In this document: piece by piece, positions 7,324 to 10,305 of the stretch | Numbering within the stretch: the stretch's first letter is position 1 | How the letters are laid out: each line of letters starts with the position of its first letter | UHGV virus genome: UHGV-1408657 | Strand: one strand, 5' to 3' | DNA length: 25,963 nucleotides | Origin: a virus | The notes under the pieces: generated by a model | What the model saw: only the letters and a program-made list of their open reading frames with translations | Database searches by the model: none | What the model was told of the DNA's origin: nothing | Translations under genes and position numbers: made by a program

Positions 7324-7467
7324 ATGCAAAATGAGAAAGGCAAAACTATCACCCTGACAGAGGCTGAGCGCAAATTCATCATGATTGCGATGATTGCCTA
7401 TACCTTATCTGGTGAGGCGTCAGAAGAAGACGCAAAAATCGCAGAGCAAATAATCAATAAGCTCTGA
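7324..7467 (+). CDS. small hypothetical protein (47 aa) with one hydrophobic segment, not in ORF track
   Basis: ATG 7324 three nt after the upstream stop with GAGGG 11 nt upstream; translation MQNEKGKTITLTEAERKFIMIAMIAYTLSGEASEEDAKIAEQIINKL; followed by a hairpin plus T-run. Confidence 0.3.
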   Translation: MQNEKGKTITLTEAERKFIMIAMIAYTLSGEASEEDAKIAEQIINKL

Positions 7468-8362: not shown

Positions 8363-9499
8363 ATGTCCAATACCCTTACTGGCCTCATCCCAACCATCTT
8401 CACCGCGCTTAATCGCGTATCCCGCGAGCAGGTGGGCTTTATCCCCGCGGTGGCCCGTAACGCTAAGGCCGATGCCGCAGCAAAAGACCAGACCGTGACC
8501 GCGCCCGTTGCACCGAAAACCACCACCGTTGATATCACCCCGGCGGCAACCGCGCCAAACGACGGCGATCAGAACATCGGTACCGTGGACGTCAAGATCA
8601 CCAAATCCAAAATGGCCCCAGTCAAATGGAATGGTGAAGAGCAGCTTGCTATCGGGCCATCAGGTACCTATGACATTGTCCTGGCTGACCAGTTCTCTCA
8701 GGCCTTCCGCGCGCTGAGCAACGAAATGGATGCTGACCTGGCAGCGCTGGCCTACAAATCTTCCCGCGCCGTCGGAACGCCTAAAGACACCCCGTTTAGC
8801 ATCAAAGACGATCTGTCTGATGCAGCGAACGCTCGCCAAATTCTGACCGATAACGGCGCCCCTACCACTGACCTTCGCATGGTGCTGGGCGGCGAAGCGA
8901 TGGCGTCCATCCGTGGTAAGCAGTCCGTACTGTTCAAAGCAAACGAAGCCGGTACCGATCAGTTGCTGCGCGAAGGCATCATCGGCCGTGTGATGGGTTT
9001 TAACCTGCATGAATCCGCCAACATCAAGCGTACCGCGAAAAGCACTGCGGCGGGCTATAAGGTAAACGGCGCGAAGAAAGAGGGCGACATCATTATTGCT
9101 ATCTCTGCTGGCACTGGCGGTATTGCTGCCGGGACCGCAGTGAAGTTCGATGGCGATGACAACCAGTACATGGTCGTAGCGGCAACCTCTTCGACTATCA
9201 CCATCGGCGCACCGGGCCTGCGTCAGGATCTGGCAGATCAGGCAACTGTCACTGTGCTGAGCGAGTTCGTGCCAAACGTTGCCTTTGACCGTAACGCATT
9301 CCTGCTGGCTTGCCGTACCCCGGCCATGCCAAAAGGCGGCGATACCGCTGACGACGTGATGAACGTAACCGATCCGGTCTCTGGTATTACCTTCCAGATC
9401 GCGCTGTACCGCCAGTACCGTCAGGTGCGTTACGAGGTTGGTGTGGCGTGGGGTGTGGCCTCCGTTCAGCCTGAACACTCTACCATCATCATGGGTTAA
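8363..9499 (+). CDS. major capsid protein
   Basis: 378 aa between scaffold and head-tail joining genes; strong RBS AGGAAA; followed by a strong hairpin, typical of highly expressed coat genes. Family assignment (possibly P22-coat-like fold family) is from memory only. Confidence 0.8.
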   Translation: MSNTLTGLIPTIFTALNRVSREQVGFIPAVARNAKADAAAKDQTVTAPVAPKTTTVDITPAATAPNDGDQNIGTVDVKITKSKMAPVKWNGEEQLAIGPSGTYDIVLADQFSQAFRALSNEMDADLAALAYKSSRAVGTPKDTPFSIKDDLSDAANARQILTDNGAPTTDLRMVLGGEAMASIRGKQSVLFKANEAGTDQLLREGIIGRVMGFNLHESANIKRTAKSTAAGYKVNGAKKEGDIIIAISAGTGGIAAGTAVKFDGDDNQYMVVAATSSTITIGAPGLRQDLADQATVTVLSEFVPNVAFDRNAFLLACRTPAMPKGGDTADDVMNVTDPVSGITFQIALYRQYRQVRYEVGVAWGVASVQPEHSTIIMG

Positions 9500-9502
9500 C
9501 CC

Positions 9503-9527
9503 AGGGGGCTTCGGCCCCTTTGTTTTT
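9503..9527 (+). terminator. hairpin plus T-run after capsid gene (likely partial terminator)
   Basis: AGGGGGC-TTCG-GCCCCTT followed by TGTTTTT; sits between capsid stop and the RBS AGGAGG of the next gene. Confidence 0.5.
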
Positions 9528-9538
9528 CAGGAGGCCCA

Positions 9539-9820
9539 ATGGCCGGATTGACCAAAGAGCAGCGCGCGCAGCGTGAGGCTGAAAAGCTTGCGGCGAAGAA
9601 CGGCGCTGAACATGCTCCTGCCCAGCAGGAACAGCAGCAGGAACAGCAGCAGGAACAGCAGCAGGAACAGCAGCAGGAACAGCAGCAGGAACAGCAGGGT
9701 ATTGAGCTGGTGTTCATGGTACGTGACACCCCAGAATTCCCTGGCGGCCCGCTGCGCGCAGATGTTCATTCTGATGAAGTGGATAACTGGCTGGCGCTGG
9801 ACTGGCGTCTGGAGGAATAA
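9539..9820 (+). CDS. small acidic protein with (EQQQ)n tandem repeat, unknown function
   Basis: 93 aa; excellent RBS CAGGAGGCCCAATG; contains about 6 in-frame copies of a 12-nt unit encoding EQQQ; conserved-looking C-terminal part (GIELVFMVRDTPEFPGGPLRADVHSDEVDNWLALDWRLEE). Confidence 0.5.
   Translation: MAGLTKEQRAQREAEKLAAKNGAEHAPAQQEQQQEQQQEQQQEQQQEQQQEQQGIELVFMVRDTPEFPGGPLRADVHSDEVDNWLALDWRLEE
9623..9697 (+). repeat. perfect tandem repeat, 12-nt unit GAACAGCAGCAG, about 6 copies
   Basis: Directly visible: cagcag(gaacagcagcag)x5 gaacagcag; in frame within ORF 9539-9820. Confidence 0.9.
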
Positions 9821-9822
9821 AC

Positions 9823-10305
9823 ATGCTGGTTGCCGATCCCAACTCTCCAGGCTTCAACAGCTACGCAAGCGTGTCAGACCTGCGGGCATTTGCCGCCGGG
9901 CGCGGATATAGCATTCCTGCAGATGATGATGAGTGCGGCCAGATGCTGATGCAGGCAATGGACTTTCTGGAAGGGAAGGCCTGGCGCGGTCAGCGTTCCA
10001 GCGCATCACAGCCTCTATCCTGGCCGCGTTCCGGCGTGCGCTTCGATGGTGTTGAGCTGCCGAATGATACTATTCCACAACGTCTGATTGATGCTCAATG
10101 TCGCCTGGCTATCGAATCGCAGGAGATTGACCTCACCCCGTCGGTCGCTGGCGGTGGGGCGGTGACGATGGAGCGCGTTGAGGGTGCGGTAACAATCCAG
10201 TATGAGCCGGGAACGAATAAAGCTTCTCCGTCATTCCCATGGTTCTATTCCGCACTGCGCGGGCTTGTAGTGGGCGGCAACCAGGTCCGGGTCGAAAGGG
10301 GGTAG
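9823..10305 (+). CDS. putative head-tail adaptor / connector protein
   Basis: 160 aa; first of four consecutive small genes between capsid and major tail genes, the standard siphovirus adaptor, head-closure, neck, tail-completion block. Called by position. Confidence 0.5.
   Translation: MLVADPNSPGFNSYASVSDLRAFAAGRGYSIPADDDECGQMLMQAMDFLEGKAWRGQRSSASQPLSWPRSGVRFDGVELPNDTIPQRLIDAQCRLAIESQEIDLTPSVAGGGAVTMERVEGAVTIQYEPGTNKASPSFPWFYSALRGLVVGGNQVRVERG

Follow-up and report, generated by a model that had tools for sequence, protein, structure and literature searches.

What does a phage protein do when part of its length is written by a perfect tandem repeat, and does that length in fact change from one relative to the next? 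The question was raised by the virus genome UHGV-1408657, of which a stretch of 25,963 nucleotides (nt), here called the window, was analysed. A first-pass annotation, made from the sequence alone, had noted in it a 93-amino-acid (aa) acidic protein with an excellent ribosome-binding site, encoded between the major capsid and head-tail adaptor genes and containing about six perfect tandem copies of a 12-nt unit. We are highly confident that this gene encodes a three-part member of the family phrog_1514, consisting of an N-terminal helix (MAGLTKEQRAQR...), a hypervariable spacer and a 40-aa C-terminal mini-domain, in which the spacer is a CAG-rich in-frame microsatellite that changes faster than point substitutions accumulate. 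The gene and its parts are as follows.

9539..9820, + strand: small gene, phrog_1514 member (function unknown), 93 aa (open reading frame (ORF) list, profile match and homologs)
9529..9534, + strand: ribosome-binding site AGGAGG, 4 nt before the small-gene ATG (direct sequence reading)
9539..9595, + strand: conserved N-terminal module MAGLTKEQRAQREAEKLAA, aa 1-19, predicted helical (40-sequence alignment; AlphaFold2)
9596..9697, + strand: hypervariable spacer, aa 20-53, KNGAEHAPAQQ then (EQQQ)5 EQQ, the sole region of length variation among relatives
9623..9697, + strand: perfect tandem array, 6.2 copies of CAGCAGGAACAG (Tandem Repeats Finder score 150, 100% matches)
9698..9817, + strand: conserved C-terminal mini-domain, aa 54-93, predicted beta-beta-alpha-beta (AlphaFold2, 88-sequence alignment)

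The small ORF is a genuine gene

The ORF starts with ATG, and its product matched phrog_1514 (PHROGs v4) over the whole profile (E 2.9e-26, residues 1-93 onto positions 1-58 of 58), the repeat being an insertion relative to these 58 positions. Protein databases returned 328 homologs, each named 'hypothetical protein', the same label that is used in all 16 cultured-phage records carrying the family. Variable sites fell mostly at third codon positions, with counts at positions 1/2/3 of 17/14/32 in the C-terminal module and 8/10/16 in the N-terminal module. On the strength of the full-profile match, the homologs and the third-position-biased variation, the small ORF is a genuine gene. The product is acidic, as had been described (isoelectric point 4.41; 20 Asp and Glu against 8 Lys and Arg; 21 Gln), and the AGGAGG 4 nt before the ATG agrees with the excellent ribosome-binding site of that description. 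There is no Pfam family for phrog_1514, and a Pfam scan of the window protein gave sub-threshold low-complexity matches only (AIM3, TFIIA, Septin). Three overlapping ORFs (9573..9911 on the + strand, 9496..9729 and 9527..9769 on the - strand) were rejected as by-products of the repeat because they translate into runs of NSSR, CCCS or LLLF and the substitution pattern favours the annotated frame.

Tandem Repeats Finder placed in the gene the single outstanding array of the whole window, with a period of 12 and the unit CAGCAGGAACAG, and the 36-nt triple unit gave 4 overlapping matches against 0.00 expected from 100 dinucleotide-preserving shuffles. In the register used by the first-pass annotation, the array consists of five full GAACAGCAGCAG units followed by GAACAGCAG, and its 'about six' perfect copies proved accurate. 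A literature search on the repeat unit or its peptide found nothing relevant, only unrelated microRNA and food-peptide papers.

The spacer changes faster than its flanks

It had been predicted that a perfect 12-nt unit would be prone to slippage while keeping the frame, giving a protein of variable length, and copy number across relatives had been proposed as the check. Relatives did not share one copy number: perfect copies of CAGCAGGAACAG numbered 0, 2-11, 14, 19 and 32, and near-identical genomes differed at the array, as predicted. The gene is present with no repeat in phage HK639 (gene 07) and one E. coli prophage (61 aa), further E. coli prophages encode small proteins of 66, 77, 81, 85 and 89 aa, and the E. 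coli prophages CX21, EC09 and ABWA45 carry 2, 3 and 4 EQQQ units, with 6-9 substitutions over ~1.9 kb. The largest number came from species-representative genomes, among which the complete chromosome of Enterobacter hormaechei B17-3 has 32 perfect copies, making up 384 nt of repeat in the gene of a 197-aa protein.

A scan of viral contigs with the back-translated core motif yielded 120 loci with 89 distinct genes, 62 of which carried perfect arrays of at least 3 copies. In intact genes the arrays had periods of 3, 6, 9 or 12 nt and lay inside the ORF with the frame kept; the array search was limited to periods that are multiples of 3, which an intact ORF demands anyway. Copy number differed in 11 of the 13 locus pairs with at most 6 mismatches in 1,200 nt of flanks. 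Seven of these 11 pairs had 0 flank mismatches over the 1,200 nt and differed by 1-3 units, and among pairs with one flank mismatch, 9 or 11 copies stood against 19. Because near-identical flanks carry different copy numbers, array turnover must exceed the accumulation of point substitutions. The same variability was seen in a set gathered without regard to the small gene, for which the capsid protein (93-99% identity) was the only bait: all 72 complete loci, out of 72, carried the gene, which came in 24 lengths between 57 and 113 aa and had over 50 linker alleles.

Other lineages have expanded other units at the same spot, namely DQQQ, GQQQ, EQQ, DQQ, EQ, QAP (27 copies), ETQ, EPQ, EPQQ, LQEQ, EQP, collagen-like PQG and pure poly-Gln. 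The last of these is exemplified by Leclercia adecarboxylata NCTC13032, in which 45 perfect CAG codons at the homologous position encode poly-Gln. At the DNA level the units likewise vary by lineage (CAGCAGGAACAG, GAGCAGCAG, GCACCGCAG, CAGGAG and CAG), and the frame and a Q/E/P-rich composition are kept. Spacers ranged from ~2 to ~138 residues with the conserved ends intact, and were predicted to be helical in some relatives and were proline-rich in others. This range of character suggests that neither the length nor the structure of the spacer is conserved. A (CAG)33.7 tract encoding poly-Gln occurs in the spacer of L047, and PQGPQGPQGPQG, a short collagen-like Gly-X-Y run, in that of a viral contig (L128). 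For enterobacterial genomes, (CAG)45 and (CAG)33.7 are unusually long perfect trinucleotide repeats.

Since both the unit and its likely conformation change, and the frame and Q/E/P-rich composition persist, we read the repeat as a protein spacer and not as a DNA or RNA element. The opposite view is that the repeat acts as nucleic acid, be it by binding proteins along the array, by serving as a recombination site or by folding as RNA, or else that it is an artefact of assembly. It could point to the Chi site (GCTGGTGG) that lies directly 3' of the array in relatives, and to the fact that CAG/CTG repeats can form slipped structures. We consider it extremely improbable. Unit sequences change between lineages where frame and composition do not, repeat-less alleles exist, and single-strand folding of the array was no better than shuffled controls on both strands (z 0.25 and -1.8). 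As for an artefact, arrays were found in RefSeq chromosomes that are closed, in an NCTC reference genome, in the genome of a cultured phage and in many metagenomes assembled independently. The exact 93-aa allele of the window is encoded on 8 human-gut metagenome contigs, each assembled independently and with the same neighbouring genes, so that its array is no artefact of the window; the metagenomes with this allele include SRR1047110 and its series. The folding result also led us to reject hairpin-driven instability as a necessary ingredient of the variation.

Chi sites are frequent in the window at large: nine lie on the + strand (positions 891, 4321, 5175, 11548, 13865, 16044, 20681, 25039 and 25810) and none on the - strand, with ~0.4 expected per strand. 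At five of the related loci (L001-L004 and L007) a further Chi site stands immediately 3' of the repeat, in GAGCTGGTGGTC, which encodes ELVV. In the window the corresponding positions 9703-9710 read GCTGGTGT, by which the Chi site is destroyed and Val58 becomes Phe. A Chi-rich structural arm has already been described in HK639-type lambdoid phages (PMC12315714).

The way the array changes can be put in simple terms. Replication slippage or unequal recombination very probably adds or removes whole units, far outpacing point substitutions; since the units are multiples of 3 nt, the length of the spacer alone changes, with both ends under purifying selection. Such behaviour resembles that of bacterial simple-sequence contingency loci and in-frame variable-number tandem repeats (VNTRs), where genomes that are otherwise identical likewise differ in the number of perfect short repeats, and it might be asked whether the repeat is an adaptive generator of diversity that serves escape from host defence or immunity, or the tuning of packaging. 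The array does outpace the flanking point substitutions, one site has been expanded convergently with different units in independent lineages, and the perfection of the arrays implies that turnover has been recent and has recurred. Yet mutation pressure on an unconstrained linker predicts the same pattern, and the repeat-less alleles are viable, as in HK639. Moreover, frameshifting is what turns genes on and off at classical contingency loci, whereas all periods here are multiples of 3 and change length only, and the locus sits in a phage head-assembly module and not in a surface-antigen gene. The allele was also stable among clonal isolates (the five CX strains had identical match spans, as had the two H strains), and that of the window recurs in 4 samples. 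We therefore regard an adaptive generator as very unlikely.

Two conserved ends and their predicted structures

When 40 close homologs were aligned, residues 1-19 and the last 40 residues (GIELVVMVRDTPEFPGGPLRADVHPDEVDNWLALDWRLEE) were nearly invariant, and length varied only between them. The repeat is thus a spacer between two conserved modules, in keeping with the 'variable linker' that had been named among the possible roles. The C-terminal module carries the motif MVRDxPxFPGGPxxADVHPDEVxNWxxxxW. When a profile was searched against 1.84 billion representative proteins, 242 relatives were recovered at E<=1e-3, and most of them share the C-terminal motif only, in the form hVxMxRDxPxxPGGPxxADVHPDEVxNWxxxGW. 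The N-terminal motif MAGLTKEQRA recurred in distant members next to unrelated linkers, Ala/Glu-rich or Pro-rich and 5 to ~90 residues long. Whether its presence tracks one particular neighbour protein was considered and set aside as uninformative, as it follows overall relatedness. One protein of the representative library (P0129, 223 aa) has a ParB-like N-terminal region in-frame upstream of a complete small protein, and is either a read-through in gene calling or a real fusion.

A subset of the relatives carries an extra module with the DNA-binding helix-extended-helix (HeH) motif. It matched Rho_N in 10 of the 14 relatives tested (best E 1.4e-6), and also HeH (E 7.7e-7) and SAP. Distant members, including those bearing HeH and a Microcystis phage protein, matched phrog_1514 at E 1e-10 to 1e-17. 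The window protein itself gave no match to HeH, SAP or Rho_N (PF07498, PF12949 and PF02037; Pfam scan).

The full-length AlphaFold2 model showed one helix over residues 6-62, with a predicted local distance difference test (pLDDT) score of 71-87 over the N-terminal module and the repeat. AlphaFold is prone to draw helices through Glu/Gln-rich low-complexity sequence, and for this reason we do not treat the long modelled helix as established. The C-terminal 40 residues of this model had a pLDDT of ~49, and the full-length model was therefore left out of the fold search. When the C-terminal 43 residues were modelled with a diverse alignment of 88 sequences, the mean pLDDT rose to 89.6, and three strands (7-12, 23-27 and 39-41) and one helix (28-36) were predicted, in the numbering of the 43-residue segment. 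Foldseek comparison of this model with the PDB gave no match, and with BFVD it returned a family member and uncharacterised phage proteins only. Searches of solved structures by sequence, with full-length and C-domain profiles, gave chance-level matches only (SMC5 and MTA phosphorylase, E>0.1).

The small gene travels with the capsid gene

The neighbours of the small gene in the window were identified as follows.

8363..9499, + strand: major capsid protein gene, P22-coat-like HK97-fold family (phrog_283 E 5.9e-122; PF11651 P22_CoatProtein E 8e-12)
9503..9520, + strand: terminator-like GC hairpin AGGGGGCTTCGGCCCCTT then TGTTTTT (promoter/terminator scan)
9811..9816, + strand: GGAGGA, likely ribosome-binding site of the adaptor gene, within the last codons of the small gene and 6 nt before the ATG at 9823
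9823..10305, + strand: head-tail adaptor Ad1 gene (phrog_477 E 3.3e-54; PF20557 DnaT_2 E 1.7e-41)

The profile matches of both neighbours confirmed the position between capsid and adaptor genes that the first-pass annotation had given. The arrangement was kept at nearly every locus with enough flank, where 38-49 nt separate the small gene from the end of a preceding ORF of 378-384 aa, and one of 130-180 aa begins 2-3 nt past its stop. A homolog of the window capsid protein (34-88% identity) was found at 96 of 102 loci, and a homolog of the window adaptor at 63 of the 102. The small gene therefore travels with the capsid gene. The prophages that carry phrog_1514 have Enterobacter, Citrobacter, E. 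coli, Klebsiella, Salmonella, Leclercia and methylotrophs as hosts, and the order of P22-type coat gene, phrog_1514 gene and head-tail connector gene was also kept in Klebsiella phage 5 LV-2017, whose spacer has EQQ x17, and in Microcystis phage Me-ZS1. Me-ZS1 (MK069556.2) has a recorded cyanobacterial host, while the head module was otherwise seen in proteobacterial prophages. Between the capsid stop and the ribosome-binding site of the small gene, the hairpin scan gave 3 overlapping predictions against 0.6 expected; a hairpin at 9503-9520 may keep the expression of downstream genes below that of the capsid protein, or make the capsid mRNA more stable.

In the prophage of E. coli VREC0761 an extra 'Gp49 family' gene (L008, 2374-2685) lies between the small gene and the adaptor gene, so that this junction tolerates insertions. 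In E. coli CX21 (L004, 136-876) and ABWA45 (L006, 129-869) a reverse-strand gene of ~246 aa, annotated as a helix-turn-helix domain protein in the former and as hypothetical in the latter, separates the scaffold gene (DUF6651) from the capsid gene and looks like a moron inside the head module. The window itself has a 47-aa ORF at 7324-7467 (MQNEKGKTITLTEAERKF...) between a Mu-F-like head morphogenesis gene and the scaffold gene.

A proposed tether that may work like lambda gpFI

Because the gene travels with the capsid gene, we infer that the P22-type major capsid protein is the docking partner of the C-terminal mini-domain. The N-terminal helix would bind a second partner, and in some relatives an HeH/Rho_N DNA-binding module would take the place of this helix. 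The protein would then be a flexible tether whose exact length is not critical, and its likeliest role would be that of an accessory in assembly or DNA packaging, comparable to gpFI of phage lambda, which bridges the procapsid and the terminase-DNA complex. A tether need only be long enough, and we propose that this leaves the spacer free to drift. This mechanism as a whole is put forward tentatively, at a little under even confidence.

The comparison with gpFI (PF14000, phrog_92, PDB 2LSM) starts from gene order. In lambda the genes stand as E-FI-FII, and the phrog_1514 gene occupies the same slot between capsid and head-tail-joining genes at ~100 loci. In 2012 Popovic and colleagues reportedly described gpFI as helical in its N-terminal part, which a flexible linker joins to a C-terminal domain able to bind the major head protein. 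The protein is essential in vivo, and its need can be bypassed through mutations in terminase and capsid (PMC13595911). A second likeness is offered by gp35 of phage Mu and its Haemophilus FluMu counterpart (HI1506; PF17891 FluMu_N; PDB 2OUT), a two-domain protein of unknown function whose gene has the same slot, in the order T (major head), gp35 and gp36 (adaptor). Residues 88-122 of FluMu gp35, which form the C-terminal HeH-like module in 2OUT, matched the HeH module of some phrog_1514 relatives (E 0.0025), and the HeH-bearing relatives share with FluMu gp35 the order of small domain, linker and HeH; Mu gp35 itself matched PF17891 (E 1.8e-10). The N-terminus of lambda FI gave a weak SAP match. 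Judged from sequence and gene order, phrog_1514, gpFI and gp35 may thus have in common a small domain, a linker and a helical or HeH module, encoded directly after the capsid gene.

Homology is another matter, and here a series of results weighs against it. Neither PF14000 nor phrog_92 matched the window protein at E<=0.1, and none of 88 family members matched PF14000 or PF17891 even at E<=10. Profile-profile comparison of the C-domain with hhalign, using both single sequence and family, gave probabilities of 0.3-0.4% against lambda FI and a non-significant 0.1-0.5% against Mu gp35, and that of the HeH module with FI was also non-significant; the FI and gp35 profiles in these comparisons are very shallow, protein searches having given close homologs only (473 and 14). 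There are also differences in build: the C-domain has 40 aa in the window protein against ~60 in FI, the N-terminal part is merely a 19-aa helix, the partner capsid protein is of the P22 type and not lambda E, and the FI linker has no tandem repeat. Given the missing PF14000 and PF17891 matches and the non-significant comparisons, we say that the phrog_1514 protein might work like gpFI and not that it is a member of its family, an analogy which we rate as possible and nearly balanced.

The same lack of demonstrable homology to any characterised protein would suit some other role in the head module, such as head completion, recruitment of portal or adaptor, scaffold release or DNA retention, with a neutral, slippage-prone spacer and a merely coincidental likeness to gpFI. 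Such a role would also fit the tight coupling to the adaptor gene, whose ribosome-binding site is likely inside the last codons of the small gene and whose ATG follows 2-3 nt past its stop, and copy numbers with no obvious optimum across 0-32. However, the homolog of the window adaptor is missing at 39 of the 102 loci, whereas that of the capsid protein is present at 96. The small gene was retained at all 72 complete loci with both ends strongly conserved, so that both modules are functional, and a layout with two ends and a spacer of arbitrary length is tether-like. A role of this kind is in our view unlikely.

The co-variation with the capsid protein and not with the adaptor would be expected as well of a capsid decoration (minor capsid) protein, in which the C-domain sits on the exterior of the mature head and the N-terminal helix and spacer project as a stalk of variable length. 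This is the main rival reading and would agree with much of the data; changes in the spacer would then alter the surface properties or the reach of the protein. Among decoration proteins, to which T4 Soc also belongs, the Soc-like minor capsid protein gp39 of phage JBD30, whose first 52 residues are disordered, provides a precedent, being a small capsid binder and having an unresolved flexible N-terminal region. The strongly acidic, Gln-rich composition of the spacer and of the whole protein is plausible for a solvent-exposed surface, the N-terminus and repeat were modelled by AlphaFold2 as one long helix, and one lineage has a collagen-like PQGPQGPQG spacer. In contrast to Soc-like proteins, the N-terminal tip of phrog_1514 is highly conserved, across very different hosts; some relatives carry DNA-binding modules; and no decoration protein was found by fold or by sequence among the matches listed. 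Decoration thus appears a doubtful possibility. The roles that the first-pass annotation had offered with caution (decoration, accessory or variable linker) are all compatible with the data.

Taking the tether reading further, one may speculate that phrog_1514, gpFI and Mu gp35 represent one ancient and widespread class of proteins encoded after the capsid gene, in which a very small domain docks on the capsid and is tethered to a module that binds DNA or terminase. The CAG-rich tether, with its 0-32 EQQQ units or as many as 45 Gln, would on this view be a dial of length under selection. If this were true, populations would sample tether lengths, tuning the initiation of packaging or escaping host systems that sense head proteins, so that the repeat would be a contingency locus by which geometry is modulated with no on/off switch. 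We consider this extension improbable.

Implications

In-frame VNTRs in linkers and gpFI-type chaperones are already known kinds of element. What is new is their combination: a universally retained head-module gene contains a CAG-rich microsatellite that is hypermutable, has been expanded convergently and reaches 32 x 12 nt or 45 CAG. The variability is solidly established, and the function is inferred. Specialists in phage assembly and in repeat instability are the likely audience, and the finding is not field-changing. Perfect arrays as long as 32 x 12 nt or 45 CAG are unusual in enterobacterial genomes and offer a natural bacterial and phage system in which to study the instability of CAG-type repeats. 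The locus is also a high-resolution VNTR marker that separates otherwise identical prophages. For phrog_1514, a widespread and uncharacterised head-module family, the results provide an architecture and a testable role, together with a natural experiment in which spacers of ~2 to ~138 residues, some predicted to be helical and others proline-rich, occur while both conserved ends stay intact. Should the protein be a chaperone like gpFI, the length of its tether would be non-critical, which would bear on how such chaperones find the portal vertex.
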